A stretch of 26,158 nucleotides of DNA, taken from IMG/VR virus record IMGVR_UViG_3300012933_000129, positions 1 to 26,158 of that record; one strand, 5' to 3'. The position numbers were made by a program, and so were the translations under genes. Source of the DNA: a virus. Its lineage: Duplodnaviria; Caudoviricetes. Below the pieces are notes generated by a model that was given only the letters and a program-made list of their open reading frames with translations, did no database searches and was not told the DNA's origin. Below are positions 1-26,158 of this stretch, piece by piece. The stretch's first letter is position 1, and each line of letters starts with the position of its first letter.

Positions 1-55
1 ATCTAATGAGCCTGATATGTCTTCGGCCACAGCACTCCCAGCAATAGTGTTGCCA
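1..55. repeat. Terminal direct repeat (copy 1), circular assembly overlap
   Basis: atctaatgag...gtgttgcca at 1-55 is identical to 26104-26158. 55 nt is a common assembler k-mer size, and an ORF reads through the junction. Confidence 0.95.
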
Positions 56-1323
56 CTGTATAAAAATAGATTCCTATCACTTTTACTATTTGGCCAGGAA
101 TACATCCCTGATACTTTATAACCACTTGAACTAACATCAAAGCTTTCAAGGTCATATCCGCCACCTGATGGATTTGTTGGAGCTCCTGTTTGTGTTACAG
201 TTCCGCTTGGCCAGGTAACACCAACAATTCTATTAGGGTATGGTGAATAAGGATATGAGTAATAAAATGTATCACCTAAGCTCAATACTCGCAATGAAAC
301 ATTTTCTAATGTGTAATCTATATTAACACTATTAGTATAGTTAATTTTATAACGGTAATTAGTTACAGGGAAATAACTTGTTGGAGTTGGTGTTGTAGTT
401 TGATAATCATAGGCAATCAACCCGTATCCAAAACTCCAGCCATCACGGCCGTCAACTACAAAGGTCGTATTACTAACCCATCTCGCTCCGCCAGCAACAT
501 CAGATCCGTTACCATCAGGATATTGGTTTGCTGGGTATATATTATTGTTGACCCAAAACCCCGTGCTACCAACAGCATATATTTTACTAACACCCTGCCA
601 TACTTCTAAATGTGCTTCTTCTGTTCCGCTAGTACTATCACTAGGGCCTTGGGAGATGGCAGCTCCCAAGCCTCTACCGCAGGCTATTAAGAGTTTTGTA
701 TTGTCAGGACTCCAGTCTATGGTTCCTTTAACCTTCAGATGATCTCCGCCCGGGGATAATTGAGATGGTCCAAATTGTTGAGATAAAGAAACACTTGATC
801 CACTAACATTATAAACAGTTGCGTAGTAATTATTACTAGCTGAACTATCATGCAATACTGCTAACTTGCTTCCATTAGAGTTAAAATCAACATCGATGAT
901 AGATGTTGTAGTTAGTGTAGGCACTGTTAATTCGTTATTAGGGCTTGTATCACTAATAGTAACTGTAGCACTAGTTGCTCTTAAAGTTCCGCTTTGACTG
1001 CCTGTTCTTATAACGGCATTAAATGATTCAGTACCTTCAGTTGACACATCGTTTGATATGGTTACTGTAAAGTTAGCAGTGTTATTATTAATAGTCACAG
1101 TACCGCCAGCAGTTACTGGATTAGCAGGACTGCTAAAGTCAGCATCACTAATAGATCCAGTTACTCCTACTAACTTCCAATAGACTACAGTACCATTAGC
1201 AATGCCAGTGGTTGTTACAGTAAAAACAACACTAGTACCTTCGTTTCTAGTGGTAAAGTTAGGTGCTATTGCGTATTGGTGCAGGTAAACAATCCTACTC
1301 CATGGATCTAATTTATATGTCAT
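1..1323 (-). CDS. N-terminal 441 codons of a 523-aa putative receptor-binding protein (Calx-beta/Ig-like domain plus beta-propeller) spanning the circular junction; missing from the ORF track
   Basis: ATG at 1323, no stop down to base 1: MTYKLDPWSRIVYLHQYAIAPNFTTRNEGTSVVFTVTTTG...FTVTISNDVSTEGTESF (Calx-beta-like), then DVDFNSNGSKLAV and IDWSPDNTKLLIA (WD40-like blades). Continues in frame at 26103. Confidence 0.85.
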   Translation of the reverse strand, partial: MTYKLDPWSRIVYLHQYAIAPNFTTRNEGTSVVFTVTTTGIANGTVVYWKLVGVTGSISDADFSSPANPVTAGGTVTINNNTANFTVTISNDVSTEGTESFNAVIRTGSQSGTLRATSATVTISDTSPNNELTVPTLTTTSIIDVDFNSNGSKLAVLHDSSASNNYYATVYNVSGSSVSLSQQFGPSQLSPGGDHLKVKGTIDWSPDNTKLLIACGRGLGAAISQGPSDSTSGTEEAHLEVWQGVSKIYAVGSTGFWVNNNIYPANQYPDGNGSDVAGGARWVSNTTFVVDGRDGWSFGYGLIAYDYQTTTPTPTSYFPVTNYRYKINYTNSVNIDYTLENVSLRVLSLGDTFYYSYPYSPYPNRIVGVTWPSGTVTQTGAPTNPSGGGYDLESFDVSSSGYKVSGMYSWPNSKSDRNLFLYSGNTIAGSAVAEDISGSLD

Positions 1324-1336
1324 AATCTTTTAATCT

Positions 1337-3535
1337 TTAAGGCCAAGTAATATTCATTTGAACTTTATAACCGTTAGGTCTTTCAAATGTAATACTGGTA
1401 AATCTTTCAACACCAACACCATCAATCTCTTCAATGACTGTGGTACTATCAGCAACTACGGTATCCCATACTTCATCAGGCCCAGTTGTACCAGCGGCTG
1501 TCCAGTATCTATCTCCAGTTTGTCCGCCTGTGGCTGTACTAGCTTCAGTCTTTAAATCAACACCTGTTTCATCTTTGAACAAATCAAAGATTTTATCAAA
1601 CAAGCCACCAGCAGTAGTATCACCTGCAAATAATTTATCTAGATTGTTTAACAGTGTTAATAAACCTAGGCTCATTAGTTGTCCGCCAATGCTTACTGGA
1701 TTATCGCTAATTGTGTCAGCAACAACAATTGGCACATATTCAATTAGGCCAGTTGGGCTTGAATAAGGGCCAGAGGTAATGCCGTTTACGCCACGGACTT
1801 TAACAAAGAAATCACTTTGTGCTAGCTGTGTGTAAGTGTAGCTAACAGTGTCATCTTCAGTTAGGTTAGAACCATCAGTATTCTTGTAAGTGCCGATCAG
1901 GATATAAGTTCTAGCTGAATCATTGCTTACACCTACATCAAAGGTAATCCAGTATTCAACTGCTTCAACGATACCGCTAGGTACTTGTGCATCAATAACA
2001 ATCTTTGGTACATTGCTTTGTTCTGTTTTAGTTACAACAGGAGTATTAGGTGTGCCAATGCTACCAATGCCTAGGATGCCACCGTCGGATACAACTTCGT
2101 ATTCAGTGATATCATAAGTGTAAACGCTAGCATCGTACTCTAAGGCTGTGAAGTCAAGTAAAATCTCACCTAGATCGCCTTCACTTTGTGTAACAGTAAT
2201 AATGCGAAATAGTTTACTGCTAAAGCCGTAAGGACTACTAGTAACACTGATAATGTCACCTGCGCCCAACATGATATAGCTGTAGTCAGCTTGGAATGAT
2301 ATGATCTTGTCAACACGGGCTTGCTTCAACGCTTGCAAACCAATCTTGGCTGCAACTACCTGTTTGTTAGTAAATGGTAAACTTAGTTGTAGGCTAGTTT
2401 CTGGTTCATTAGCATACAGGTCACCTGATGGAATGCTAATCTTAACAAAGTCAGTCTTATCTTGGATATCAGTGTTAGCGTACTTGACATCAGCAATGTT
2501 GTTTAACTGTGTTAGGCTAGTACCACTGATACTGATGTCACCAATAATGTTGCTGTCAGTGAAGTTAGCTACTGCTGTACCTGCTTTGTTGATGACCACT
2601 TTCCACAAGCCTGTGTGGATATCATAAGTTAACCAACTGCTAGCTGCTTCTGCCAGTGCTTGCATATTGGTTAGGACATCAGTCTTAACATCAACTAGGC
2701 CGTTAATATGGATTGGACTTGTAGATGTTTGACTTGATAAGTTAGTATAACTAAAGCCTGTGTTGGCAAAAGTGTTCAATGCCAACAAGCTAGTGCCATC
2801 AACTTCTTCTGCTGGAATGCCTGCACCATAAACTGTGTTAGTCATGTAGTCAGCTAGTACATCTCCTGGCAGTACCATATTAGTCTTAGCATGGAATACA
2901 CAATCTGGCAATCCACTTACGCCTCTGTCTTTATTGTAGGTAATCTCTACAATAGCGTACATTAGGTCTTCCATAGAATGCGTTAATGAACTCCAACCAG
3001 GCATTGTGGTGAATGGGCTTGGTGTTGTTCCGCTTGAACCAACGGGCTGTACACCTGTTTGGTCGCAGTAGAAGTAAACCTTAACTAGGTCACGGAAACT
3101 AATATCTTGGTTGCCTGAACTATCTAGGGTGTAGTCAACAGTGTATCCGTCAGCTTTGAACACTACTCGGTTGTTGTTAAGGTAAACGCCTTGGAATGTA
3201 TAGCTTGTTGGGTTGCTATCGGATAGCTTAAGGCCAGTAAGTTCTGCCAATGTTAGGCAGTAAGTCATCTTCTTGTAGTCGCTGCTCAGTTGTGCATCAG
3301 TGATATAACCACCAAAGTATGCTTCACCGTATAGTACAGGGATTTCATTTTCAGTGCTAGGATTTAATTGTAATCTAACACCTTTGTCGACAATTTCATT
3401 ACCGCCAGCAGTAGTTGGATCAGTAGTCTTGTTTAATAACTTAGATGCGTATCCAAGTAATGCAGTCTTGGCCAGTGAACTAGTAACACTACTTCCCTTG
3501 AACCAGCTCCATGCTGTGCTGAAAAAATCACCCAT
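1337..3535 (-). CDS. Tail tip / central baseplate hub protein (lambda J-like) with FN3-like C-terminal region, 732 aa
   Basis: IPVLYGEAYFGG motif, ADYMTNTVYGAG, LGAGDIISVT...FRIITV, FN3-like FFVKVRGVNG. Position after tape measure and Dit. Confidence 0.8.
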   Translation of the reverse strand: MGDFFSTAWSWFKGSSVTSSLAKTALLGYASKLLNKTTDPTTAGGNEIVDKGVRLQLNPSTENEIPVLYGEAYFGGYITDAQLSSDYKKMTYCLTLAELTGLKLSDSNPTSYTFQGVYLNNNRVVFKADGYTVDYTLDSSGNQDISFRDLVKVYFYCDQTGVQPVGSSGTTPSPFTTMPGWSSLTHSMEDLMYAIVEITYNKDRGVSGLPDCVFHAKTNMVLPGDVLADYMTNTVYGAGIPAEEVDGTSLLALNTFANTGFSYTNLSSQTSTSPIHINGLVDVKTDVLTNMQALAEAASSWLTYDIHTGLWKVVINKAGTAVANFTDSNIIGDISISGTSLTQLNNIADVKYANTDIQDKTDFVKISIPSGDLYANEPETSLQLSLPFTNKQVVAAKIGLQALKQARVDKIISFQADYSYIMLGAGDIISVTSSPYGFSSKLFRIITVTQSEGDLGEILLDFTALEYDASVYTYDITEYEVVSDGGILGIGSIGTPNTPVVTKTEQSNVPKIVIDAQVPSGIVEAVEYWITFDVGVSNDSARTYILIGTYKNTDGSNLTEDDTVSYTYTQLAQSDFFVKVRGVNGITSGPYSSPTGLIEYVPIVVADTISDNPVSIGGQLMSLGLLTLLNNLDKLFAGDTTAGGLFDKIFDLFKDETGVDLKTEASTATGGQTGDRYWTAAGTTGPDEVWDTVVADSTTVIEEIDGVGVERFTSITFERPNGYKVQMNITWP

Positions 3536-4098
3536 TATGGTGCTCCAAAGTTAAAATTGCTGTTGGCCAGCGCCTGTACCCTTGCCATGTCTTGAACACC
3601 GGGGAAATCAGTTTGGTTAGTTCTTCTTCCGCTAACCTTATTACTTAATAGTTCAACTGGGCTGTTGCAAGTCAATGTGATAGTTGATACTGCTAGGTTA
3701 TCATTAACCTCAACACTGTCAGTGATTGCATAGTTAGTAACAATGCCTTTAAAGTGTAGTTGGGTGTTACCTCCACCTAGACTCAGTGCTTGGTGCGTAA
3801 CTGCATCAAAATACGCTCTGTAGATCCAGATTGAACTGCCTTTGATTTCTTGTGCAAGGATGTCAGCAATGCTGTTAGTTGGGATGCCACTAAGGCTTAC
3901 AGTTAATTCGCCTGCGCTAGGTTTTAGTTCGCTTGGAATGCTACTAACACTTAGCATGTTGCCTATGTTAGTATAGGTGTTACTATTAAATGATAGTGGT
4001 GTGTGGTAATCGCTGATATAAGCCGTAGAGAAGTTAGGCACTTCCCACTTAAGGAATACCGCTGACTCTAGGCTTGCGTAAGATCTTAAATCAATCAT
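3535..4098 (-). CDS. Minor tail / baseplate hub protein, 187 aa (start moved to MIDLRSY)
   Basis: ATG at 4098 forms an ATGA overlap with the upstream stop. Beta-rich sequence ELTVSLSGI...IWIYRAYFD...HFKGIV; synteny. Confidence 0.7.
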   Translation of the reverse strand: MIDLRSYASLESAVFLKWEVPNFSTAYISDYHTPLSFNSNTYTNIGNMLSVSSIPSELKPSAGELTVSLSGIPTNSIADILAQEIKGSSIWIYRAYFDAVTHQALSLGGGNTQLHFKGIVTNYAITDSVEVNDNLAVSTITLTCNSPVELLSNKVSGRRTNQTDFPGVQDMARVQALANSNFNFGAP

Positions 4099-4712
4099 AC
4101 CATCTTCTCGTAAAATACAAATGGTCCGGACCAACTAACTTGATCACGGGCAAACAATGTGAAAGTTGGAAAGTCAACACATTGAACAGTCCAGCTACAG
4201 TTAGCACCAACACGCAGAGCTACACCAGTGGCTGTGTTATCAATTACCGGTCTGTTTAGGACAACTGCGTTTGAGTTGTAAGCAACATCAGCTGCTACAG
4301 TGTAAACACGCCCACTAGATCCTAGTTGGATAAAATCACCTGCTTTGAACTTAAATCCTGAGCTGGTTGTTGGACTAGTTGTAAGTGTAATGGTATTGCT
4401 GCCTGTGGTAATAGTGGCAACAAAGCCTGTTGAGTTCACACTGTTACCTTGATATTGGTACAACCAGCTTTGTCCACTAGTGCTTAGGCTGATAGTACCT
4501 GCTGTTACACGACCCAATGCTTCTGCTTTGCTAATATTGCCACGAACATCAGTCCATGGCATACCATCAGGTAGTTTAACACTGAACTTCCACACACCAG
4601 CGCCACGGCTAGTTGCTCGGACTGTGTTGTTGCGGGTAACTGTTTGCCCTACAATTTCTTGACGCTCGATTGAAATCGCTTCGGCGTTATCTATAATCCA
4701 TTGAAATGACAT
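4095..4712 (-). CDS. Distal tail (Dit)-like protein, 205 aa
   Basis: Directly follows tape measure; WKFSVKLP and FKAGDFIQLG motifs typical of this position. Confidence 0.65.
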   Translation of the reverse strand: MSFQWIIDNAEAISIERQEIVGQTVTRNNTVRATSRGAGVWKFSVKLPDGMPWTDVRGNISKAEALGRVTAGTISLSTSGQSWLYQYQGNSVNSTGFVATITTGSNTITLTTSPTTSSGFKFKAGDFIQLGSSGRVYTVAADVAYNSNAVVLNRPVIDNTATGVALRVGANCSWTVQCVDFPTFTLFARDQVSWSGPFVFYEKMV

Positions 4713-6991
4713 TATCTGCCTCCAGGTATTGTTCTGCGGCCTTGTTCTGCCACTGCATGTAAGAATGTTGGATCCTTAGCTAGCATTTGTTTAAAGCTCA
4801 ATGCATCTACTGCACTGATGTTGTATGTTACATTACCGCCACCGCCTAGTCCACTATTAGGAACCATTTGGCCGTTGCTTGATGGGATAAACAATTCAGG
4901 ACCACGCTCGCCTACAATGTAAGGACGATTCATAGCCGCTGGGCCACCTTCAGCAAGAATACCCGGAATCAATGCGCCGCCAAATAACCCACCTGATTTG
5001 CCAGTACCTGCACCGCCTATTGAGCCAACACCACTGAATGTTTTAGCCATCAATTGTTGGATCTGGCTACGCAACAAGGCATCGATCATAGTTTGTAAGA
5101 AGTCTTTCCATCCTAACTTACCAGTCTTAAACAACTTCATTAGCATGTCTTCCATACCTTGGCTCATTGTTTGGAAGATCTTTTGAGCTTGGCCAGCGGC
5201 GTTGGTTGCATTGTCTACATAATCGCGGAATGATTTATCCCAACCTGAGGAGAATGTTCTTGATTGATCGGCAATCTGTTGGTTAGCATCAGCGATACTC
5301 TTAGCACCAATAGCAATACCTTTGTAAGTCTTGTCTAAAGAGTTAGTCATCTTATCAGCAGTATCTTGGGTAATGCTACCCATCTCTACTGAATACGCAA
5401 TGTTATCACGGATTGATTGGCCAATTTCATCGTAACTCATCTTTAGCAAATCAACATTATCAGTTGCTTCACTAATTACTGCGATTGCTCGGCTCTTTTC
5501 ATCCTTGCTTAGTTCACCTAGGTTACCACTAAGTTCGCCGCGGATCTTTTGCACTTGGTACAATTTTGATTCTAAGTCGATTCTTTCTTTGTAACTGGCA
5601 TTGTCAAGCATTTGCTTTGCTTGAACATCAAAGATCTTCTGCTCAGCATCGGCCATATTTTGGAATAAAGAAGTAAAGTTTCTTACAACTCTACTGTAGT
5701 CGTCAGTGAGTTTGATCTTTTCTTCAACAGCTCGCTTTTGAGCCTCAGCGCCTTGCTTGATAGCTTCCTGCTCTTTTTTGTAAGCATCTAGTGTTCTAGA
5801 TCTAGCATCTTTATCTAGTGCTTCAAACTTTTGCTTCAGTTGGTACAATGCATCCTGTGCTTCTTGTTCAACTTTAGCTCTTTCTTCTGCAACTTTCTTT
5901 TGTGATTCGGATAAGCCTAATGATTTGTATTCTAAGTCATACTTTTCTAAAGACTTTTTCCAGTTTCTATCTAGTGAATCTTGGATCTGTGTTAACGCAT
6001 CGAGTTCTTTCTTCAATGCTTGGTTAAGGCCTTCCTGATTACGAACACCCTCAGCAGTGGCATCATTGTTAGACTTTTGTTGCTCTTCAGTGTCCTTCAT
6101 CAATCCTAAGTAGCTGACTACACTAGGTCCGATGGCTAATAATGCTGTGGCAACAGCAATGAATGGATTCTTGGCAGCAACAACTGTAAGTGTTCTAACT
6201 AAACTAATCAGTGAAGCCATACCTGCAAGCACAGCTGGTGCAGCAACTGCTGCGACACCTAAGGCTAATAATCTAAAACTAATAGCGGCAACTTCAGTGT
6301 TAATACTAATCTTAGATAGCAACCAAAAGACAGGTTGGAATGCTTCAGCGAAAGCCAACTTGAGTGTACCTAAGATTGAAACCATGTTATCCCACGCAGC
6401 ACCGGCAGTCTCAATGCTGTTAGCATATGGTGCCATCTCTTCAGTAAGTTTCTTTTGGTCAGCAGCAAACTTTTCAATGTTAACACCTACTAAGCTCTTG
6501 CCAAATACTTGCATCGCAATAGCATTGCGTTCAATAGGATCTTTAATCTTAACTAGACCGTCAAGTAATTGATCCTTAAGTGCAGTATTAGACTTATTGC
6601 CAAGGTCAGATAAGCTAACACCCAAGCGGTTAAATGTTGATAATGCCTTAAGGTTGCCGCCGTTGGCTTCCTCAATGTTTTGACTCATAGTCTGGAACAT
6701 CTTACCAACATTCTCAGCCTTGCCGCCGCTACCCTCTAGAGCCTTACTCAAACCTAGTACTTGTTCAATTGCAACTTGGTTAGCATCGGCAATGTCGCTA
6801 ATGTCATCAGCAAATGCTGCCACGGCTGCTCCTGCACCAACTAACGCCAATCCTAGACCCTTGGCTTGATCCGACATCTTGCCAAAGTTATCGCTAAACT
6901 TCTTGCTAATATCTTCTAATTTCTTACCAAGCTTCTCTAACTCTCGTATGGCGGGGCTTGTGTCAGCATTAATTATTAAATTGTCTGCCAT
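4712..6991 (-). CDS. Tail tape measure protein, 759 aa
   Basis: Long helical Ala/Lys/Glu-rich protein with a hydrophobic middle and a C-terminal AEGGP...YIVGERGPELFIP motif. Confidence 0.92.
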   Translation of the reverse strand: MADNLIINADTSPAIRELEKLGKKLEDISKKFSDNFGKMSDQAKGLGLALVGAGAAVAAFADDISDIADANQVAIEQVLGLSKALEGSGGKAENVGKMFQTMSQNIEEANGGNLKALSTFNRLGVSLSDLGNKSNTALKDQLLDGLVKIKDPIERNAIAMQVFGKSLVGVNIEKFAADQKKLTEEMAPYANSIETAGAAWDNMVSILGTLKLAFAEAFQPVFWLLSKISINTEVAAISFRLLALGVAAVAAPAVLAGMASLISLVRTLTVVAAKNPFIAVATALLAIGPSVVSYLGLMKDTEEQQKSNNDATAEGVRNQEGLNQALKKELDALTQIQDSLDRNWKKSLEKYDLEYKSLGLSESQKKVAEERAKVEQEAQDALYQLKQKFEALDKDARSRTLDAYKKEQEAIKQGAEAQKRAVEEKIKLTDDYSRVVRNFTSLFQNMADAEQKIFDVQAKQMLDNASYKERIDLESKLYQVQKIRGELSGNLGELSKDEKSRAIAVISEATDNVDLLKMSYDEIGQSIRDNIAYSVEMGSITQDTADKMTNSLDKTYKGIAIGAKSIADANQQIADQSRTFSSGWDKSFRDYVDNATNAAGQAQKIFQTMSQGMEDMLMKLFKTGKLGWKDFLQTMIDALLRSQIQQLMAKTFSGVGSIGGAGTGKSGGLFGGALIPGILAEGGPAAMNRPYIVGERGPELFIPSSNGQMVPNSGLGGGGNVTYNISAVDALSFKQMLAKDPTFLHAVAEQGRRTIPGGR

Positions 6992-6993: not shown

Positions 6994-7290
6994 TTATTTT
7001 CCTGTAATTTGTTTAAGGCGCTTCTTCAAGTACTCTTCAGTTGGCTTGATCATACCTCGAGGCGCTTGCTTACTCCATCCTTGGTCTAAGCGTTTAGCAT
7101 AAGGATAGTTTGCCTGGATTGTTTTCCCAGACAATGAAGTATTTCTTCGTGCATTACCAGAGTCAATTGGAGTAATGGCAACAAAGTGCTTATAAACATC
7201 TTGGGGAAGTGCTGCGAGTTGTGCTTGGACTTTTTTAATCTTATCTAAGCTAGTTTTGACGCTGCCTGTAACCTGGAATTGGATACTCAT
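6994..7290 (-). CDS. HK97 gp10-like tail completion protein, 98 aa
   Basis: TPIDSGNARRN and YAKRLDQGWSKQAPRG match the PVDTG...YA..LE.G pattern. Confidence 0.75.
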   Translation of the reverse strand: MSIQFQVTGSVKTSLDKIKKVQAQLAALPQDVYKHFVAITPIDSGNARRNTSLSGKTIQANYPYAKRLDQGWSKQAPRGMIKPTEEYLKKRLKQITGK

Positions 7291-7562
7291 TTATTACTCT
7301 CCTTGACACGATTAATCATGCCTTGCATTTGTTCTACTGATAAGCTAGGGTTAATACTTGCCGAGCCTGAGTTGGCTTGTGATAGATCCTGTTGATGTTT
7401 TACCCATTTGGTACTAACATCAAGCACATATAGATCTAAAGTATTACCCCTAACTAATGCTTCACTAGGTAAGCATTTGTATTTTTCAGCAAGGTTATGC
7501 AGTGTCAACACAAGCATAATATCTGGATCATCCCAATCCACTTCCCCGCCAATTACTTTCCC
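7287..7562 (-). CDS. Tail assembly chaperone frameshift extension (lambda gpT-like)
   Basis: The -1 frame from GGGAAAG (7556-7562) reads GGG AAA GTA ATT GGC GGG GAA GTG GAT TGG..., which is the track ORF 7287..7541. Confidence 0.8.
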   Translation of the reverse strand, partial: GKVIGGEVDWDDPDIMLVLTLHNLAEKYKCLPSEALVRGNTLDLYVLDVSTKWVKHQQDLSQANSGSASINPSLSVEQMQGMINRVKESNK

Positions 7563-7861: not shown

Positions 7862-8026
7862 TTATCTGTTAATCAATTTGTTTATTACTACTAATAAGAA
7901 GCTGAGTCTATTTGTAGCTTTGTCTAGATCTTGGCGAGCGCATTTAATCTCGTTAGAAGCCTTTGCGACTTCTGCCAACAAGCTCTCGTGAAGCTCTTTA
8001 TCTGTCTTTTTATCTAAAATATCCAT
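7862..8026 (-). CDS. Small coiled-coil protein, 54 aa (not in track)
   Basis: MDILDKKTDKELHESLLAEVAKASNEIKCARQDLDKATNRLSFLLVVINKLINR*; AGGA RBS; fills the gap downstream of a TAAATA site. Confidence 0.8.
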   Translation of the reverse strand: MDILDKKTDKELHESLLAEVAKASNEIKCARQDLDKATNRLSFLLVVINKLINR

Positions 8027-8044
8027 CAATCAATCCTATGCTAA

Positions 8045-8594: not shown

Positions 8595-8616
8595 GTTTGT
8601 TTATCTCCTAAGATGG

Positions 8617-16107: not shown

Positions 16108-16128
16108 ATCTATTAATCTCCTACATTA

Positions 16129-18861: not shown

Positions 18862-18865
18862 ATCA

Positions 18866-18871
18866 TATTTA
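18866..18871 (-). promoter_or_regulatory. Late-type promoter TAAATA-tgat-ATG (probable leaderless mRNA)
   Basis: Same 4-nt spacing to the ATG as at terS. Confidence 0.65.
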
Positions 18872-18904: not shown

Positions 18905-19231
18905 TTAAGCAGAACGATTTTCTATTTTGACTCTAAAGCTTCTAGCGTCAATTAGTCCATCAGTTGTGGTTACTTTGACTGTGACCACATAGCTCTTGCC
19001 TATTTGACCTTCTTTAAGTTCAATGTAGGTTTTGTTGCCGCCAGTGATACCACTGCTGACCTTGACTAATGGATCAGGATCATTGACTCGAGCTGTGACT
19101 GTGTAAACAGCTGATGCAATAGTGTCGTTAGCCACTAACCAATCTGACCAATCAAAGGTGTAGAATAGTTGTGCTTGTGGATCTTTGGTAATCCATAGTG
19201 TTTGGTTAATTTGTTCAAATCCGTTTGACAT
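18905..19231 (-). CDS. Small Ig-like virion / fibre-adaptor protein, 108 aa
   Basis: KDPQAQLFYTFDWSDWL...G.IGKSYVVTVKVTTTDG...RSF, a pattern seen in phage structural modules. Confidence 0.65.
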   Translation of the reverse strand: MSNGFEQINQTLWITKDPQAQLFYTFDWSDWLVANDTIASAVYTVTARVNDPDPLVKVSSGITGGNKTYIELKEGQIGKSYVVTVKVTTTDGLIDARSFRVKIENRSA

Positions 19232-19236: not shown

Positions 19237-22200
19237 TTATCCTTTTATTTTATAAGTTGGGGTTGATTCAATTGAAATTGAGTTTGAATCAGCATTGAAT
19301 GACCAAGATCTATCCTCGTACTCAATTGTGTACAAGTTTGACTCAGCTCTTATTGACCAAAGATTAGTGTCTCTTGGAACAACATAGGTTTCGCTAGCAT
19401 CAAAGTTGATTACTTTCGCATCGGATAATACAAATCCTTGGCACAGCAAACTAGCAACTGCGCTAATCTGTTTGCCTGCGTTTGTATTTAAACTAGCTAG
19501 TACTGTGATGTTGGCTGCGGTGGCTTTGACAATATTGCCAGTGACCTGCATACTGGCAGCAGCCATCTCAAGCGCAATAACATCACGGACTGCTCCGGTG
19601 TTGGCAGTTAAAGTGAATGCACTTGATAAGCTAGCACTAGAACTGTTGACCACTAGTGCATTGCAACTCAAGTTGGCAGTTACTGCAAGATTAGCTTGAC
19701 CAATAATACCAGCATCAGCTGATGTAGTCATTGAACTTGCACTGACCAATACCGCTGATGTTGGACGGTTAACACTTGATCCACTAGTTAGTGTTGCGCT
19801 AGTTTCTAAAGTTGCTGAATTGCTGGCTAATGTTTTTACATTAGCTGTTAGGCTAGCTACTAGTGTTAGATCGACTAAAGTATTACCAATCTTGTTGATA
19901 GCAGTTAATTCACTGGCAACGCTGGCAAATGCTGATGCTAACTGTTTGATTCGCAATGCGCTAACGGCAACTGTAGATGTTGTAACTAAGCTGGCTGTGA
20001 GTGTTCTTGAAACAGTTGCGCTAACTTGTTGATTTACAACACAATTAACTGCTGAACTAGAGCCACGGAGTCTATTTGCATTTGCAACAGTATTGAATGT
20101 TGCTGTCATGCCAACTGAACCACTTGGCAAACTCACTGCATTAACAGTCATTGCAGTATCTGCACTAACTGAACTAATGATAGGTCCGATGTTCTTGGTT
20201 ACTGTACAAGCAATTGAACTTGATACAGTTAGGTCAGCACTGGCAATTTTACCTGATTCTGCCGCGGCTGTTAATGAGCTGCTAACTGTTAGGTCAGCAA
20301 CTTCAGGGCGGATACGACCAAATGCACTTACTAAGAAACCGTTAGACTCTAATGCTATCTCAACAGTTCGAGTAGTATTAGCTGATGCAACTAATTCAGT
20401 CAATGCACTGGCTGCTGTGGCAAAGTCAGTGAACTTGGTTACTGTACAAGCAAGCTGGCTATTAGATACTAACGAACTAGATGCATTTTGAATCTTAGTA
20501 GTAATTTCAACTAACGATGAATCAACAGACAAGCTAGCGGCTGCTGATTTAACATTGGTTACTGTACTAGTTAATTGAGCACTTGCTGACAAATTAGCAG
20601 CAGCGCCTCTGAACTTGGTTGTTAGGATTACTGCTGTTGCAGTACTATTAATGGCAGCACTGGCAGATTGAGTAACTGCAGAACTTGAAATGTATTCATT
20701 AGTAAACGCAGCAGAGCCAGTAGTAATAGTGAATGAAGAAGTAGAAGCTGTTAAGCCTAATGTTGCTCTTGTGACACTAGAAGCATTTAGTGTTACAGGT
20801 GATACTGTACTGATAGTGTAATCAGATGCAGCATAACTGAATGCGCTATAATCTCCATAACCACTGCCGTTAACAGGCAACGAATAAATTTCGTCTATTG
20901 AGTTGACCTTGATTGAATCACTAGTAACAACAATGTTCCAAACTTGTGAAGAGCTGCTTACTATTTTGTTTTGATAAACTAAGTTACCTTGACTTGTAAA
21001 CTTAACAATATATGATGCAGAATCATCATCTCCAATACAATAAATGAAGCCACTTGGACTGATAGACACGCTATTACGAGCAGAACTATTTTGACCTGAG
21101 ATGGCAATGTCTCGGATCCATTGTACTGTTCCGCTTGAATTTAATTTAACTAATCGACTGTCTTGATTTGGATATGTACCACTTGTACCAATGATATAAA
21201 TGTTACCAGCAGAGTCTGTAGTAATACCTGCTGAGCTATCAATAGCAAGCATGTTACTAGTAGAATATTGCCAAGTAATGTTACCATTGCTGTCTAACTT
21301 GGCTAATAAGTTACGACCAATGGTATAGATATTGCCACTGCCGTCAACTGTTACATCGTAGTTATTATAGACACCGCTTGCAGTGCCGTATCCGTAACCC
21401 CACTGTAGTACACCAGAACTGTTATATTTTACCAGTGCAGCTCTGTTGAATGTTGTAGCAGTCTGTCCAGTAACATAAAAGTTACTAGATGAGTCAGTTG
21501 TAGCAGTACCACTTAGTGATACCGGTGTTGATGATGATTGAGTCTTCTGCCACTGGATTGCTCCAGAGCTGTTGAACTTATAAACATTTGAACCAGCACT
21601 ACCATAAATGTTACCACTTGAATCTAATGCAATTGCACTGTTGGTCAAACTGTTGGCAATCTTAGTCTGTAGTACTGGTAGACCGTATTGGTCTAGTTTA
21701 ATAACATTACCAGAACTTGCCAATAGCACAGTATTACCGCTAGAGTCAACTGCTAGGTCATAGATAGTATCAGATGGTGATTGAACAGCTGACCAGTACT
21801 TGGTAATTCTATCAACAGTTGCGCTAACAGTTGAAGTTAATGTTAAACCAGCTGATCCTTGGTAACCAACTAATGCACTTGAAACTAATTGTGAACTTGA
21901 CTCAATGCTAGCAGCCATTGGCTTATTAGCTTCGGCTGTTACACTAACTGTTGATACACTGTCAAGTACGGCAAAGCTATTACGGAATATGTCAACAGTT
22001 AGGCTTGGGCTAAACAATGCGTTTTGTTCGGATGCAAAACTGCGGGTTCTACTTGCATCAGCTGATAGATCAAAGTTTGACTCAATGGCAACACTGATTT
22101 CTCTAGTAACATCAATTGAACTAATATCTAAACTGGTACTAGTAGGCATGCTACTATCAGTGTCACGGATTCTATCATTAATTGCACTTTGGCTAAAACT

Positions 22201-22740
22201 TGCACTGATAGTTGCATCAAGTGCTCGAGTTAATACACCGCTTGCTGAAACTGTTGAAGATGCAGTCCAAGCACCGCTGGCTTCAATGATTGATCCACCG
22301 TCAATGCGTACAGCATCACACGCCAATGAAAAAGCCGCATCTACAGCGGCTTCAGTGATTCTAACTCGTAGGTTATCTACGCTGAAAGTAACTTCACCGT
22401 CAAGGTTAGATCCAAAGTCAGTAAACTTAGATCCAGTAGTTACTTGCGTGAAGGCACTGGTAACACTAATGTTATTGTCACGGATTCTATCAACAGCAGC
22501 AGCAAGTGCTGCGTCAGTCATGGCAAATAAGTCAGCACCTTCAATATGACTGATAGTTGCAGTCAATGTGGCAAAGCCTGGCAAATCACCTGATCCAAAT
22601 ACAGCAACGCCGCCAGCAATGACACTAGCATCACAACTAATTGAACTAGTGCTAGTTACCTGTGATTCAGCATCAGCTGTATAGACAAAGTAACTGTCGT
22701 CTATGTAGCCCGTTTCATAGTAATATAAATCTTGTGTCAT
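19237..22740 (-). CDS. Large fibre/adhesin, 1167 aa: Ala/Ser/Thr ~20-aa repeats flanking a central beta-propeller
   Basis: Central repeated (V/L/T)DSSGNIY...KxNSSGxxQW blades; flanking periodic repeats such as SAAASLSVDSSLVEITTKIQ. Confidence 0.75.
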   Translation of the reverse strand: MTQDLYYYETGYIDDSYFVYTADAESQVTSTSSISCDASVIAGGVAVFGSGDLPGFATLTATISHIEGADLFAMTDAALAAAVDRIRDNNISVTSAFTQVTTGSKFTDFGSNLDGEVTFSVDNLRVRITEAAVDAAFSLACDAVRIDGGSIIEASGAWTASSTVSASGVLTRALDATISASFSQSAINDRIRDTDSSMPTSTSLDISSIDVTREISVAIESNFDLSADASRTRSFASEQNALFSPSLTVDIFRNSFAVLDSVSTVSVTAEANKPMAASIESSSQLVSSALVGYQGSAGLTLTSTVSATVDRITKYWSAVQSPSDTIYDLAVDSSGNTVLLASSGNVIKLDQYGLPVLQTKIANSLTNSAIALDSSGNIYGSAGSNVYKFNSSGAIQWQKTQSSSTPVSLSGTATTDSSSNFYVTGQTATTFNRAALVKYNSSGVLQWGYGYGTASGVYNNYDVTVDGSGNIYTIGRNLLAKLDSNGNITWQYSTSNMLAIDSSAGITTDSAGNIYIIGTSGTYPNQDSRLVKLNSSGTVQWIRDIAISGQNSSARNSVSISPSGFIYCIGDDDSASYIVKFTSQGNLVYQNKIVSSSSQVWNIVVTSDSIKVNSIDEIYSLPVNGSGYGDYSAFSYAASDYTISTVSPVTLNASSVTRATLGLTASTSSFTITTGSAAFTNEYISSSAVTQSASAAINSTATAVILTTKFRGAAANLSASAQLTSTVTNVKSAAASLSVDSSLVEITTKIQNASSSLVSNSQLACTVTKFTDFATAASALTELVASANTTRTVEIALESNGFLVSAFGRIRPEVADLTVSSSLTAAAESGKIASADLTVSSSIACTVTKNIGPIISSVSADTAMTVNAVSLPSGSVGMTATFNTVANANRLRGSSSAVNCVVNQQVSATVSRTLTASLVTTSTVAVSALRIKQLASAFASVASELTAINKIGNTLVDLTLVASLTANVKTLASNSATLETSATLTSGSSVNRPTSAVLVSASSMTTSADAGIIGQANLAVTANLSCNALVVNSSSASLSSAFTLTANTGAVRDVIALEMAAASMQVTGNIVKATAANITVLASLNTNAGKQISAVASLLCQGFVLSDAKVINFDASETYVVPRDTNLWSIRAESNLYTIEYEDRSWSFNADSNSISIESTPTYKIKG

Positions 22741-22749
22741 TGCGTGTCC

Positions 22750-23487
22750 TTATGCTGTATCATCAGTTTGTGTAGTTGACTCACAGTGGAATAATCCTAA
22801 TGTAGTTGCATCATTGACAAATGCAGCCGTTGGTACTGTTAAACTTGAAGTTCCTGTGTATCGTGTGCCGTAAGTTACACGGAATTCATCAAATCTAACA
22901 GAGTTGTTGTTACTACCGTTAATACCTTTACCTACATAAAAAGCAGGCTGGTTTGTTGAAGTTGAATAAACCACATTATTAACTCTTAGTGTGCCACCCT
23001 GCCAAATACTCAGCCTACCTGAACTATTAACTTGAAGTGCAAAATGCTGCCAAGTTGCAGTTGGTATAGTCAAGTTCACTAGAGTACTAGCACTACCATC
23101 ATATAATTTCCAAGTGCCTTGGCTAGTATTCCATGACAGTGATAAATCACCGCCACCTGCTGTAGCTAGACTTGAGAATATGTCAGAATTTGTAGCCCAG
23201 ACGCATTGGTTACTATTTGATGGTGTAAAACTGATATACATCCAAAATTCAATGCACATTGGAGTCGTACTTTGCCAATAGGTAGCACCTGCGGATGTAT
23301 TACCAAATGCCAAGCGGTGATAGTTATTACTAGTTGCTACTGTGGCAATAGCATTGCCAAATTTACCAGCACTAGCACTTCCGCCTGTACCTGAGTAGTT
23401 AGTAGTCCAAGTACTATTAGTCACACGCACACCTGACGGTGCTGCCGCAGCCTTGGCTAATGTATTAAGTCTTGCTACTCCAAACAT
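22750..23487 (-). CDS. LamG/concanavalin A-like lectin domain protein, 245 aa
   Basis: CIEFWMY, TWQHFAL, FDEFRVT, PTAAFVNDATTLGLFH. Confidence 0.85.
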   Translation of the reverse strand: MFGVARLNTLAKAAAAPSGVRVTNSTWTTNYSGTGGSASAGKFGNAIATVATSNNYHRLAFGNTSAGATYWQSTTPMCIEFWMYISFTPSNSNQCVWATNSDIFSSLATAGGGDLSLSWNTSQGTWKLYDGSASTLVNLTIPTATWQHFALQVNSSGRLSIWQGGTLRVNNVVYSTSTNQPAFYVGKGINGSNNNSVRFDEFRVTYGTRYTGTSSLTVPTAAFVNDATTLGLFHCESTTQTDDTA

Positions 23488-25052
23488 TATGCGAATCCTT
23501 TTGCTAGACTTGCGTAGTAAGTTGTACCAATGTAACTGACAGTTAAGATGTCAATAGAGTTAGCCGCAGTTGATAATGTTTTTAATCCACCAGCAAACTT
23601 CATTGTTGATGTTAGTGTTCTTGAACCAGTTGCGTCTTGTGTAATAATTAAGGTAATACTTTGTCCACTCACTGGGCTGGCAAATGCTGAAAATGTCAGA
23701 TTACCTGTTAATGTAATAGTTCTAATAGATCCGTCAGCGGCATTAGGTGTAATGGTTGCTACATAACTTAATGCGGAAACAGTTTCACGGATGTCTTTTA
23801 AAGTAGCAGTAGTACTTACAACTAATGCAGTAGTAGTTAGTACGCCAGTATTTGGAACAAAACTTAATCTTCCTGAAGTTACATTCAATGCATTACCAGT
23901 GCCACTACTATTAGTAACAAAAGTTGGATACCAAGTGCCTGTTGAACTTGTATTATCTGTTATGCTAACACCAACGGCATTAGTTGCTGATCCACTAAAA
24001 CTTGTAGCAGTTAATGTACCAGTTGATGGATTATATGTAAATCCAGTATCAGTTCTAGGTGATAAGTTGCCAGTTGCCGCATTGACGAATGTTGGATAGT
24101 TAGTGGCGTTAGTAGTGTTATCTGCTGTTAAAGTAACTGTACTAGCACTTGAAGCATTACCAGTTAACGAACCTACAAAAGTTGTAGATGTTAAAACTCC
24201 AGTTGATGGGTTATATGTAAGGCCAGAATCAGTCTTTGGTGAAACATCACCGACTGTGGTTTCTGCAAACAACATGTATCTAGTAGCGTTAGTAGTGCTA
24301 TCACCTGTTAATGATACTGTTGATGCTACTGATGCTTCTCCTACTGAAAGGACGCTAGGACTAACATCAACCCAGTTAGTGCCGTTGTATTGTAGAACTT
24401 CACCAATAGTGGCGCCTGTAATGGCTACATCACTTAGACCATCTAAGTTAGTAGCACCGCCACTGACTGTGGTCCAAGTCATTGCTGAACTACCATTAGT
24501 AGTCAATACTTGTCCGTTAGTACCCATGCCAGTTGGGAAGTCAAGAGCACCAAGAGTGATTTTACCACTTGCTGGAGTTAGTTGAATATTACCAGTGCCG
24601 TTAGGAACGATGGCAATGTTACCATTAGATGCTGACACAATTGAATGTCCATTAACATCTAAGTCGCCACCTAGTTGTGGAGTTGTATCATCAACAATAT
24701 CACCACCACCAGCGGCTGGAGTTTCCCAACTTAGAACACCAGTACCACCTGCTGTTGTTAATACTTGTCCTGCTGAGCCTGGACCTGCTGGCCAATCAGT
24801 TGCGCCAAGTGTGATCTTGCCTGATGCTGGAGTTAATTGAATATTACCAGTGCCATTAGGAACAATAGCAATATTGCCGTTGCTAGTTGATACAATACTG
24901 TGTCCGTTGACATCTAGGTCACCGCCTAGTTGTGGAGTTGTATCTTCAACGATATCTTCAATCTTATCGTTGTTTAGGTTATTGATGTTGGCATCACCTT
25001 CGGTCCAGGTTAATGCTGAGCCTTTGGTTGCTCTTGTGTAAATTGTTGACAT
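23487..25052 (-). CDS. Tail fibre protein with internal repeats, 521 aa
   Basis: RATKGSALTWTEGDAN N-terminus; two copies of DTTPQLGGDLDVNG; GQVLTT; three YNPSTG-type repeats; C-terminal TLIITQDATGSRTL...IDILT. Confidence 0.85.
   Translation of the reverse strand: MSTIYTRATKGSALTWTEGDANINNLNNDKIEDIVEDTTPQLGGDLDVNGHSIVSTSNGNIAIVPNGTGNIQLTPASGKITLGATDWPAGPGSAGQVLTTAGGTGVLSWETPAAGGGDIVDDTTPQLGGDLDVNGHSIVSASNGNIAIVPNGTGNIQLTPASGKITLGALDFPTGMGTNGQVLTTNGSSAMTWTTVSGGATNLDGLSDVAITGATIGEVLQYNGTNWVDVSPSVLSVGEASVASTVSLTGDSTTNATRYMLFAETTVGDVSPKTDSGLTYNPSTGVLTSTTFVGSLTGNASSASTVTLTADNTTNATNYPTFVNAATGNLSPRTDTGFTYNPSTGTLTATSFSGSATNAVGVSITDNTSSTGTWYPTFVTNSSGTGNALNVTSGRLSFVPNTGVLTTTALVVSTTATLKDIRETVSALSYVATITPNAADGSIRTITLTGNLTFSAFASPVSGQSITLIITQDATGSRTLTSTMKFAGGLKTLSTAANSIDILTVSYIGTTYYASLAKGFA
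24546..24956 (-). repeat. Intragenic duplication (~52-aa core, 255-nt offset)
   Basis: DIV(E/D)DTTPQLGGDLDVNGHSIVS(T/A)SNGNIAIVPNGTGNIQLTPASGKITLGA at about 24801-24956 and 24546-24701. Confidence 0.9.
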
Positions 25053-25165: not shown

Positions 25166-25585
25166 TTAAGCTAGGCTGACTGTCAAGTTACCTGATGTTA
25201 CTTGGAAAGTATCACCGGTATCGATTGTCTTAGATGTAGTTACTGCACCCCAGAACAATACATTGCCTGAACCAGCTGTACCACCGTCCATTACTGCCAC
25301 ATGAGTAATAGTACCCCATGATGCTGTAGCTGCGTCGAAAGTTACAGTGCCGTTAGTTGCACTTGTACCACCTGAAGCTGCTGCAAAAGTTACTGCCTTG
25401 CGAGCATAAGCTGTACCTGATGTTGATGTTTCATCAGTTAAAGTTCCTGCTTCTAGGTTAGCTGCTGCGTTGCCTGAGGTGTTATTGAACAAAGCCAAAT
25501 AACGAGTTGTTGGGGCTGTATAGCCTGTCGCTGTTAGAACATGGTCAAGAACCTTGTTCTCTAAATAATTACTTGCTGCTGACAT
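25166..25585 (-). CDS. Virion structural protein (fibre/decoration-associated), 139 aa
   Basis: SNYLENKVLDH...YLALF...YARKAVTF...WGTITHVAVMD...GNVLFWG, a familiar phage structural pattern; AAGGAGA RBS. Confidence 0.75.
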   Translation of the reverse strand: MSAASNYLENKVLDHVLTATGYTAPTTRYLALFNNTSGNAAANLEAGTLTDETSTSGTAYARKAVTFAAASGGTSATNGTVTFDAATASWGTITHVAVMDGGTAGSGNVLFWGAVTTSKTIDTGDTFQVTSGNLTVSLA

Positions 25586-25637
25586 AAATGTCTCCTTATA
25601 TAAGTTGTCTCTTGGACTTGCTTGCGAATCGCACTAT

Positions 25638-25643
25638 TATTTA
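25638..25643 (-). promoter_or_regulatory. Late-type promoter core cTAAATAa heading the fibre operon
   Basis: Intergenic, 52 nt upstream of the ATG at 25585. Confidence 0.65.
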
Positions 25644-25705
25644 GCGCAATCCCTAAAAATCATTAAAAATCTCTCAAAAAAGATAATTACTTAAAGGATA
25701 GAAAC

Positions 25706-25858
25706 ATGCCAGAACAATTAAATTTAAATTTTGAAGAAATCAAAAGAATAATAACCAATGCTAAAGAAAACAAACTAACTGAAGAAGACCTACAGTACCT
25801 TGATAAGTTAGGTAATCTTATTGCCTATGTTGAACACCTTAAAATACAAAAAGGTTAA
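25706..25858 (+). CDS. Only credible plus-strand gene, 50-aa helical protein (not in track)
   Basis: AAAGGATAGAAAC-ATG; MPEQLNLNFEEIKRIITNAKENKLTEEDLQYLDKLGNLIAYVEHLKIQKG*; its stop shares TTAA with the convergent gene. Confidence 0.7.
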   Translation: MPEQLNLNFEEIKRIITNAKENKLTEEDLQYLDKLGNLIAYVEHLKIQKG

Positions 25859-26158
25859 ACTGTAAACAGTTTTAATTTGCCGCCTGTTCCCACAACAGCT
25901 AGAACACTGCCTTGGGGATTGAACTTCATAAACTTTACTTGGAAGCCAGCAGTAAAGCTAGGACCAAATGCTTTACTAAAAGTTAAAGTAGTTCCACTTC
26001 TAGAGTATATTTGGATAATCTTTTCTCTGCTTTGTAAACCGTGAGCAACAGCAATCTTAGTTCCATCAGTGCTAATAGCTACTACAGTAGGGCTGAAGGT
26101 ATCATCTAATGAGCCTGATATGTCTTCGGCCACAGCACTCCCAGCAATAGTGTTGCCA
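25855..26158 (-). CDS. C-terminal part of the same junction-spanning protein
   Basis: ...AEDISGSLDDTFSPTVVAISTDGTKIAVA...MKFNPQGSVLAVV* is in frame with 1..1323 after collapsing the 55-bp overlap and has further propeller blades. Confidence 0.85.
   Translation of the reverse strand, partial: GNTIAGSAVAEDISGSLDDTFSPTVVAISTDGTKIAVAHGLQSREKIIQIYSRSGTTLTFSKAFGPSFTAGFQVKFMKFNPQGSVLAVVGTGGKLKLFTV
26104..26158. repeat. Terminal direct repeat (copy 2)
   Basis: Exact copy of 1-55. Confidence 0.95.

Follow-up and report, generated by a model that had tools for sequence, protein, structure and literature searches.

How does a tailed phage multiply if its genome carries virion genes but no recognisable enzymes for replication, transcription or lysis? 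The question is raised by IMGVR_UViG_3300012933_000129, a closed siphophage-like genome of 26.1 kb that was analysed over its full length (the window, 26,158 nt). A sequence-only reading had proposed a satellite that builds its own particle and borrows late transcription, replication and lysis from a large co-infecting phage. This proposal, which remains a prediction, is supported by a motif and a cis element shared with jumbo phages and by searches of the small genomes that detected no gp55-like sequence.

Genome closure and virion genes

The genome closes as a circle, as had been claimed: a 55-bp direct repeat joins the ends, the record is classed as having direct terminal repeats with a completeness of 100%, and a 523-aa ORF spans the junction. 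A repeat of 55 bp is also of a size typical of assembly overlaps, which would fit one mis-circularised piece of a larger phage genome. However, such an artefact has next to no probability and is largely refuted by the ORF that continues through the junction, by seven relatives that are closed at 28.0–30.7 kb with differing closure points, and by the absence of the family-specific proteins from contigs >33 kb. The full head, tail and packaging set of the sequence-only reading was recovered by profile matches to TerS, TerL, portal, scaffold, major capsid, neck, tape measure, Dit, hub and fibre/adaptor genes, but the tail tube, tail terminator and chaperones could be placed by position only.

26104..26158, no strand: 55-bp direct repeat of bases 1–55 (circular closure)
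1..1323, minus strand: 5' part of the 523-aa tail-tip/fibre-like ORF, the rest at 25855–26103 across the circle junction (weak phrog_1922, E 0.0015)
1337..3535, minus strand: central tail/baseplate hub, 732 aa (PF13550, E 1e-4, slightly below the cut-off)
3535..4098, minus strand: baseplate hub/tail protein (phrog_2048, E 1.2e-17; 21 of 21 genomes)
4095..4712, minus strand: distal tail protein, Dit (phrog_1302, E 5e-7)
4712..6991, minus strand: tape measure protein, 759 aa (PF09718, E 7.9e-19; phrog_24)
6994..7290, minus strand: neck/tail completion protein (phrog_169, E 2.7e-8)
7287..7849, minus strand: two small conserved ORFs, likely tail assembly chaperones by position only (each in 15 of 21 genomes)
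7862..8050, minus strand: terminator-like hairpin followed by TAAATA (8045–8050), which stands ahead of the distal tail genes and a conserved 54-aa ORF
8109..9515, minus strand: likely tail tube (161 aa), tail terminator (130 aa) and head-tail adaptor (169 aa), by position and conserved order
9529..10368, minus strand: major capsid protein, HK97-type, 279 aa (PF25209, PF05065, phrog_267)
10394..11110, minus strand: scaffold gene (phrog_2303) with TAAATA (11105–11110) 30 nt upstream
11564..13042, minus strand: portal (phrog_145, E 4.5e-56)
13058..14293, minus strand: large terminase, TerL (PF03237, E 2e-20; phrog_2)
14290..14725, minus strand: small terminase, TerS (phrog_309), ATG 4 nt after TAAATA (14720–14725)
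18905..19231, minus strand: fibre-tail adaptor, gp77-like (PF23148, E 1.2e-19)
19237..25052, minus strand: three fibre/adhesin-like genes of 1167, 245 and 521 aa (PF06739, phrog_677)
25166..25643, minus strand: gp80-like fibre protein (PF23140, E 1.4e-34) preceded by TAAATA (25638–25643)

The two putative chaperone ORFs matched no profile (Pfam, PHROG, profile–profile comparison). The putative tail tube (8109–8594) had no match among profiles, PDB sequences or phage records, and its profile–profile match to the tube family of a relative was weak (E 0.027).

The major capsid protein has 1,259 homologues, one scan recovered 111 TerL loci of the family, and near-complete relatives measure 26.8–30.8 kb (terminal repeats in 7 out of 20). 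The best 30 TerL matches among 2,163 records all belong to phages of Proteobacteria. The shared core virion genes and the genome size link the window to the proposed 'Nanhuiviridae', represented by DSL-LC06 (OR003941; 29.8 kb vs. 26.1 kb for the window), to which 14 window proteins including TerL, portal, scaffold and capsid are 21–61% identical. DSL-LC06 has TAAATA ahead of the scaffold and other operons, has no annotated replication genes, and was presented, together with 50 uncultured genomes, as an orphan cluster of freshwater phages (PMC10611076); the words "satellite" and "helper" do not occur in the available text of that article.

Non-structural genes and the TAAATA motif

In agreement with the sequence-only reading, none of the 41 ORFs matched a polymerase, primase, helicase, initiator, integrase, repressor, sigma factor, RNA polymerase or endolysin family (Pfam and PHROG, for 22 ORFs also NCBIfam), and the largest unassigned non-structural ORF encodes 171 aa. 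Among 94 representatives of the accessory proteins of 20 relatives, no replication, transcription or lysis enzyme was found; neither these nor the window ORFs matched a partition, repressor or initiator family or, in Pfam and PHROG, an integrase. A 345-aa PolA-fold protein is, however, encoded by 3 of the 21 genomes. A gp55 profile built from 38 jumbo phage sequences detected nothing gp55-like in six frames of 22 small genomes (best E 0.61), nor did a profile–profile comparison with 12 small-protein families.

11122..11466, minus strand: XhlA-like coiled-coil/membrane protein, holin-like candidate (phrog_1193, E 8.7e-5; 9 of 21 genomes)
15024..15446, minus strand: conserved protein, 140 aa (pLDDT 88.7)
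15446..15664, minus strand: small lipoprotein (signal peptide and lipobox)
15661..16134, minus strand: HNH-like ORF, 148 aa (phrog_16521), after TAAATA (16129–16134; motif at 10 of 15 sites)
16673..17032, minus strand: endonuclease VII (PF02945, E 2.5e-11)
18346..18871, minus strand: four-cysteine (zinc-finger-like) protein, 171 aa, ATG 4 nt after TAAATA (18866–18871)

The endonuclease VII, the HNH-like ORF, the XhlA-like membrane protein, the lipoprotein and the 430-nt non-coding element described below had been overlooked earlier. A relative of the HNH-like ORF matches HNH phrog_3118, and the nearest cultured matches of the endonuclease VII are ~40–47-kb Variovorax and Pseudomonas phages (autographivirus-size), not T4-like phages. 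The 140-aa protein has 112 homologues that are confined to genomes like that of the window (longest contig 31,451 bp), and its predicted structure has no clear PDB match. Cysteines C68, C72, C97 and C100 of the 171-aa protein are invariant in 63 homologues, and its fold search gave no clear match either. No own primase/Rep module matched a profile in the window, and either of these two proteins may be a self-encoded activator or initiator.

The claim that TAAATA heads nearly every transcription unit has to be qualified, the signal being one of strand and placement. Raw counts are not enriched, because the window contains 14 copies of TAAATA vs. 26.6 expected and two of the full TATAAATA vs. 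1.85 expected from shuffles. However, 13 out of 14 TAAATA copies have the same orientation as the genes (binomial p 0.0018), eight fall within 2,000 intergenic bases where 1.76 are expected (3 of 5,000 shuffles), and 8 of the 12 gaps of at least 25 nt hold one. Across 21 genomes the positions are orthologous with no conserved -35, and the motif is found 221 times on the gene strand vs. 80 times on the opposite strand. It precedes the scaffold gene at 19/19 orthologous sites, the 54-aa post-tube ORF at 14/14, the gp80-like gene at 16/18 and TerS at 14/18, whereas portal, TerL and hub have it in 0/21. The TerS–TAAATA spacing is 3–5 nt in 14 of 18 genomes, and the TerS transcript is likely leaderless. 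The window also contains several patterns that resemble sigma70 promoters, and one of these overlaps the TAAATA at 16659. The helper-free control HTVC026P (TerL 53% identical) showed no strand bias (36/45 TAAATA copies) and encodes a DnaD protein, an HTH regulator and an M15 peptidase.

T4-type late promoters are defined by an unconserved -35 and a TATA-like box that precedes the start by about one turn (PMC2988020), and the logo and ATG spacing of the motif fit this definition at the level of sequence. The T4 octamer TATAAATA, previously taken as the promoter, has to be replaced by (A)TAAATA, the consensus of the CBB/GAP32 jumbo group; in CBB, ATAAATA precedes structural genes (PMC5259590). 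A role for gp33 and the gp45 clamp, also part of the sequence-only reading, is not established here because homologues were undetected in CBB according to the same source (PMC5259590).

A 430-nt element in common with jumbo phages

17554..17619, minus strand: AT-rich tract and conserved short motif, directly downstream of the element
17620..18045, minus strand: structured non-coding element of ~430 nt, common to T4-like jumbo phages
18114..18119, minus strand: TAAATA, 77 nt upstream of the conserved start of the element

The secondary structure of the element is supported by covariation (93% of cells paired, two-sided changes in 15 of 24 pairs, 0 of 500 shuffles as high), and no Rfam family reaches its gathering score (best Polynucleobacter-1, 16.9 bits vs. 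37, E 0.48). Jumbo markers of the T4-like type (gp55, gp47, gp46 or EndoII-like; PA5oct/Atu_ph07 kin) adjoin 68 of 80 flanked viral loci and small-phage genes adjoin nine. In the element tree the small-phage copies are dispersed among the jumbo copies, requiring five label changes; a single small-phage clade was rejected (p-AU 5.7e-8). Such sharing is evidence of contact within a common host rather than of dependence. Only 5 of the 21 family genomes carry the element. A second structured element is present in 3 of the 21 and in DSL-LC06, and has small-phage neighbours in 20 of 22 loci and a jumbo marker beside none of them. L069, which has another element type, matches the AT-rich tract with its motif at 95% identity over 44 nt. 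Among 185,579 species genomes, the 430-nt element was found only on three contigs that look like binned jumbo pieces.

In the jumbo phages G023, G024 and G027, TAAATA is among the top upstream hexamers with the same flanking bias and an ATG peak at +4/+5. G023, in which TAAATA heads the portal and capsid operons, encodes a gp23-type capsid, late sigma factor, DNA polymerase, clamp loader and endolysin. Small phages and jumbos have nearly no proteins in common (four weak matches). The cultured phages PA5oct, Atu_ph07, Phosso and CBB/GAP32 share the gp55-gp47-gp46 gene order of the element-bearing jumbos, and gp46 of cultured T4-like jumbos is 45–48% identical to that of G024. The element was not found in the 10-kb gp46 regions of PA5oct, Phosso and Atu_ph07, and its carriers are uncultured aquatic relatives.

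Dependence on a helper and its alternatives

A jumbo parasite is likely because enzymes for copying, transcription and lysis were not recognised in the genome and because motif and element are common to T4-like jumbos. The window is thus probably a complete 26-kb tailed phage that multiplies only in co-infection with a T4-like jumbo of the PA5oct/Atu_ph07/CBB group. TAAATA would be a -10-only late promoter with a start 4–5 nt downstream that is read by the late sigma factor of the helper, and nearly all genes would therefore be silent until the helper reaches its late phase. The particle would be self-built, replication and lysis proteins would be borrowed, and the helper endolysin would open the cell. 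The element would be a copied helper cis signal with a TAAATA site of its own for transcription, and it is a candidate for a replication origin or primer RNA taken over from the helper. A priming/origin module is its most probable function, with the chances about evenly balanced, because relatives have a different structured element or a PolA-fold primase-like gene in its place.

An autonomous minimal phage that is replicated by host enzymes, redirects host RNA polymerase to TAAATA with a small protein and gained the element by recombination in a chance co-infection is very unlikely. The nearest cultured TerL relatives are indeed helper-free ~32-kb pelagiphages, some relatives carry the PolA-fold gene, and the conserved 140-aa and 171-aa proteins lack a known fold and have only distant look-alikes in uncultured phages or none. 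But these two proteins are not universal (10/21 and 12/21 genomes) as the motif is, TAAATA also precedes the 171-aa gene in 8 of 12 genomes, which leaves no early gene, the six-frame and profile–profile searches found no likeness to gp55, no endolysin was found in any genome of the family examined, and the motif would need to have converged on the jumbo consensus.

A helper is kept, but widened to any gp55-encoding T4-like phage of the host, if the element is a selfish or accessory RNA (e.g., the partner of an EndoII-like nuclease) with no replication role. This is rather unlikely: late promoters of the TAAATA type are a general trait of T4-related phages (PMC2988020, PMC5259590), the element directly follows an EndoII-like ORF in most jumbos and it is swapped or absent among close relatives, but in G023 ~170 kb separate element and nuclease gene, the small phages have the element but not the nuclease, every genome searched (small phages and jumbos) has a single copy of it and its slot alternates with the PolA-fold gene. 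Equal dependence with a dormant phase, in which the genome persists as a host episome and acts as an inducible anti-jumbo defence like proviral Mavirus, is improbable. No integrase was found, yet entry into cells without a helper must be common, the two nucleases could cut helper DNA, and a late-only promoter set would serve as an infection sensor (Mavirus model, PMC6723459); against this, partition, repressor and initiator families were not found and the 140-aa family has zero copies in the 185,579 species genomes.

The proposed dependence of a complete tailed phage on a jumbo was compared with known satellites. The elements PLE, PICI, cf-PICI and P4 integrate, mostly have their own Rep or primase and rely on the helper for capsids or tails; the window was rejected as a member on the basis of its closed genome, the integrase not being found, the 140-aa family not occurring in the species genomes and its own tape measure, Dit, hub, neck and fibres. 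As proposed for the window, they are small elements switched on by a helper phage, and PLE needs the replication machinery of lytic ICP1 (in part, PMC12822802). Own-capsid, replicase-free satellites are already known: in Streptomyces, the satellites MiniFlayer and MulchRoom, whose helpers are large virulent phages of the BE cluster, have their own terminases, portal, scaffold and capsid and no primase or obvious replicase (as in the window, although 3 of the 21 genomes have the PolA-fold gene), and MiniFlayer lacks an integrase, which MulchRoom has (PMC10690885). They are smaller (14.8–17.4 kb vs. 26.1 kb), MiniFlayer docks on the helper neck with short fibres, and MulchRoom has helper-like long tails (PMC10690885). 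Unlike both, the window has its own tape measure, Dit, hub and fibres as well as putative helper-type late promoters and a cis element common to the candidate helper lineage, and its putative helpers are ~360-kb T4-like myoviruses.

The proposed relation to jumbo phages resembles that of virophages such as Sputnik, Guarani and Mavirus to giant viruses (PMC6723459). Virophages have double-jelly-roll virions, infect eukaryotic hosts and have no homology to the window, so that the analogy is functional only. It is possible, and tentatively suggested, that the widespread freshwater family of fully tailed 26–31-kb phages is their bacterial counterpart, with no structural theft, switched on only by the late sigma factor of a jumbo and replicating from a swappable cassette that repeatedly copied the 430-nt origin/primer of jumbos; on this reading the element would also reveal the replication origin of the jumbo phages.

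According to a 2026 review, it is unclear whether satellites become commoner as helper genomes grow, and few examples exist (PMC13359090). If the dependence is true, an abundant satellite family (1,259 capsid homologues, 111 TerL loci) targets ~360-kb T4-like phages, and it escapes satellite finders by its resemblance to an ordinary complete siphophage. Hyperparasites could then hide among metagenomic "phages without replication genes", and the helper could be identified from promoters and shared cis elements. The 430-nt element also offers a testable candidate, either for a new structured RNA or for an origin, in uncultured jumbo phages.

Gene content of the window and its relatives

The window record, 26,158 bases long, has a terminal repeat of 55 bp, is complete by record classification and carries a 523-aa ORF that continues over the circle junction, in agreement with the circular closure claimed by the sequence-only reading. 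The minus strand carries every long ORF; the sole plausible plus-strand gene (25706-25858, 50 aa) has no family match. Profile matches were obtained for TerS, TerL, portal, scaffold, HK97-type capsid, neck, tape measure, Dit, hub and gp77-like and gp80-like fibre parts. Most of the full head, tail and packaging set proposed earlier is thereby backed by profiles, and the putative tube, terminator and chaperones are assigned by gene order alone (attempts to confirm the tube gave no firm support for tail-tube identity). The non-structural block (14.8-18.9 kb) contains about ten ORFs of 58-171 aa, in line with the 171-aa ceiling reported for unassigned non-structural proteins, including an endonuclease VII, an HNH-like protein, a lipoprotein and ORFs without a family. 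None of 41 window ORFs searched with profiles matched replication, transcription, integration or cell-wall-hydrolase families, which upholds the claimed lack of recognisable enzymes of these kinds, and no tRNA or tmRNA was found. A scan for endonuclease VII over viral contigs returned one weak locus, and at most 14% of the window sequence words were present in any sequencing run.

The fold-search check for sigma, Rep or lysin folds suggested earlier was run on models of two conserved proteins, and no family was recognised, a negative result that may still hide a remote fold:

15024..15446, minus strand: 140-aa protein
18346..18871, minus strand: 171-aa four-cysteine, zinc-finger-like protein

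The 140-aa model had no Foldseek PDB match at E<=0.001, a best Z of 5.1 in VIA (a generic helical bundle, no family) and matches to uncharacterised proteins of uncultured phages alone in the viral structure library. The 171-aa model reached a best Z of 3.5 and <0.9 in the Atlas, with no family.

Scanning for TerL gave 111 matching stretches (80 loci among the matches listed). The 22 longest TerL records were looked up (16 at least 90% complete, seven with terminal repeats) and 20 were used, giving 21 genomes with the window. A total of 94 out of 119 accessory cluster representatives were scanned with profiles, and none matched a polymerase, primase, helicase, integrase, sigma factor or endolysin; the matches comprised homing nucleases (some with I-TevI-type DNA-binding domains), a glycosyltransferase, a ferritin, methyltransferases and tail parts. 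A PolA-fold protein in 3/21 genomes blurs this picture. A gp55 profile built from 38 jumbo phage sequences gave no convincing match across the six reading frames of 22 small genomes (best E 0.61) and matched none of 12 small-protein profiles. The nearest cultured TerL match, the helper-free pelagiphage HTVC026P, encodes a DnaD protein, an HTH regulator and an M15 peptidase, and its TAAATA copies show no strand bias (split 36/45).

Several accessory genes were observed among the relatives. A beta-1,4-glycosyltransferase (phrog_13126; L096:9571-10623, opposite strand; 5/21 genomes) may act on surface receptors or on DNA as a modifying enzyme, and a ferritin/Dps-like gene (L096:2758-3258, minus) lies between portal and scaffold in 7/21 genomes. 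Relative G019 carries two genes with I-TevI-type DNA-binding domains, part of T4-style homing nucleases (L124:4707-6707), and the tail operon of the subgroup G001, G003, G004, G005 and G010 has two tail-tube genes in tandem and includes a gene for a GNAT acetyltransferase (L105:3133 region). TerL of G011 appears split into two ORFs of 208 and 211 aa (L106:765-2026) by a frameshift or assembly error.

TAAATA in the small-phage family

The hexamer TAAATA, said in the sequence-only reading to head nearly every transcription unit, is not enriched by raw count in the window (14 observed, 26.6 expected), nor is TATAAATA (2 observed, 1.85 expected), but its strand and position stand out. It occurs on the gene strand in 13/14 copies (p 0.0018), eight copies lie within 2,000 intergenic bases where 1.76 are expected (reached in 3/5,000 shuffles), and its intergenic count is the highest among 15 permutations of its letters. 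Across the 21 genomes the motif precedes the scaffold gene (19/19), a small post-tube ORF (14/14), the gp80-like gene (16/18) and TerS (14/18, with the ATG 3-5 nt behind the motif in every case), and is absent upstream of portal, TerL and hub (0/21 each). In G006, G007 and G018 the zinc-finger-like gene has the opposite orientation and diverges from the gp80-like gene, and TAAATA still lies 4-6 nt before the ATG of the inverted gene.

No conserved -35 was found at the family sites. The T4 late promoter has a TATA-like box one turn before the start, lacks a -35 and is read by gp55 (PMC2988020), and the family arrangement fits this plan. An archaeal TATA box was ruled out because only 3-5 nt separate the motif from the TerS ATG and because AGGAG sites of the bacterial type are over-represented. 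A host sigma70 -10 box, which follows the pattern TANNNT, was also ruled out, as the hexamer misfits this pattern and a -35 is not conserved.

A structured element in a swappable slot

The follow-up added a feature absent from the sequence-only reading:

17620..18045, minus strand: structured non-coding element of about 430 nt

The element sits 77 nt behind a TAAATA in an 826-bp gap (17520-18345), in a stretch conserved with the relative G012. An Rfam search of window and element gave no family, and a hidden ORF was rejected as loop lengths differ by single bases. In a 35-row alignment, 93% of the cells in four helices are paired (slid controls, 34-49%) and 15/24 pairs show two-sided changes (reached by 0/500 shuffles), although the helices were picked from the alignment used for scoring, which biases the result in their favour. 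G-U variants point to the sense strand.

A pattern built from the 5' end of the element matched at least 120 viral loci (about 460 estimated). Among the matches listed, 68 of the 80 flanked loci adjoin gp55, gp47, gp46 or EndoII-like genes, nine adjoin small-phage genes and three adjoin neither (one being the 217-kb G023). This jumbo majority is not built in, since the pattern came from small-phage copies. The element profile detects one copy each in the jumbo records G023, G024 and G027 and is present in 5/21 small genomes. A tree of 53 copies (two divergent rows excluded) requires five changes between small-phage and jumbo labels and rejects the 13 small-phage copies as one group (p-AU 5.7e-8), with bootstrap not fully settled and the window's copy in a region of long branches. 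The pattern matched ten times in 185,579 species genomes; three of these matches are full elements, located at a contig end or on contigs that carry jumbo genes, so the element is not a host chromosomal RNA. All three contigs (L301, L307, L309) belong to Flavobacteriales bins, probably through low-GC binning of jumbo contigs, or they may hint at a host. Against cultured phages, element DNA gave no match or a 45-nt hairpin alone. One jumbo element contains a 45-nt AT-rich palindrome (L175:4180-4230) with matches in intergenic regions of Caulobacter giant phages and of N4-like roseophages.

In syntenic relatives the flanks are the same and the contents of this slot differ: it holds the other jumbo element type in L069 and an ORF in G015; a contig of run X1 links window 18095 to 17617 with undetermined letters between. 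Two further occupants recur:

L282:4001 (minus); G008, G014, G018; L274 (737-1082): second element, a conserved hairpin-rich non-coding stretch of about 350 nt behind TAAATA
L119:7676-8710 (minus); G013, G017; partial in G011: 345-aa PolA-fold protein

The second element occupies the slot in G008, G014, G018 and the published relative DSL-LC06, and was found at 22 viral loci, mostly of the small-phage family, with a jumbo marker near none. The PolA-fold gene occupies the slot in G011, G013 and G017. Its predicted structure is similar to those of PolA-family and D5-helicase-fused proteins (TM ~0.6, below the naming bar) and it carries PolA-like motifs, making it a candidate stand-alone primase-polymerase, which we take to be TVpol-like. 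Because the slot is filled by a primase-like gene in some genomes and in others by a structured element that has its own promoter and is followed by an AT-rich tract, it is best read as a putative replication-initiation (origin) module, a reading whose chances we judge to be about even; it may resemble transcript-primed origins such as T4 R-loop origins and ColE1 RNA II. Long hairpin-bearing non-coding stretches with AT-rich ends also lie at the gp46 locus of G023 (36300-37190, minus), PA5oct (L277 7867-8531) and Phosso (L276 7410-8425); they do not match the element profile and are possibly further element types.

Jumbo phages as candidate helpers

The large element-bearing records are pieces, 22-66% complete, of ~360-kb genomes, and by gp46 (45-48% identity) they are kin of Phosso, PA5oct and Atu_ph07. 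TAAATA is one of the top-ranked upstream hexamers in G023, G024 and G027 (33/96, 15/29 and 28/70 regions, respectively), A occupies -1 at 53% of sites in small phages and jumbos alike, and ATG peaks at +4/+5 behind the jumbo motif. In G023, TAAATA stands before the operons for portal and capsid and not before gp43, clamp loader or thyA; matches among the 75 scanned G023 proteins include a gp23-type capsid, portal, late sigma, DNA polymerase, clamp loader and endolysin. In the cultured relative CBB, structural genes are preceded by ATAAATA and a gp55-like sigma is encoded, with gp33 and gp45 homologues reported as undetected (PMC5259590).

Codon-usage correlation does not separate helper candidates (0.49-0.79) from relatives (0.65-0.91), and GC skew in the jumbos tracks the orientation of the genes and pointed to no origin. 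RNA libraries X10, X11 and X13 of one study contain near-relative contigs over the head-tail operon together with jumbo-family capsid-operon contigs, which carry no transcription, strand or start information. This co-occurrence is not discriminating, because library X23 also contains jumbo-family capsid-operon contigs but no window words.

Overall, the window phage quite probably depends on a jumbo-type helper. Its particle would enter a host, probably a proteobacterium given the AGGAG sites, an endonuclease VII nearest to those of Variovorax and Pseudomonas phages and the Pseudomonadota host predicted for DSL-LC06 (PMC10611076), and its genes would stay silent until a jumbo phage makes late sigma, whereupon the TAAATA promoters would fire. 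A foreign template for the helper sigma is plausible, since basal gp55 transcription is active on supercoiled plasmid DNA (PMC2988020). The slot cassette would recruit replication proteins of the helper, the phage's own terminase would fill its own heads, and helper lysis would free both phages.

DSL-LC06 has been placed in a proposed family, in an article whose accessible text mentions neither satellite nor helper (PMC10611076), and no description of the element, or of a satellite that is fully tailed and has late promoters of the T4 type, was found in a literature search that covered subscription journals thinly. MiniFlayer and MulchRoom are described as satellites with their own capsids and without a replicase (PMC10690885), and virophages combine their own virion with the late promoter of the helper (PMC6723459); the window phage would be a variant of such helper-dependent satellite viruses.
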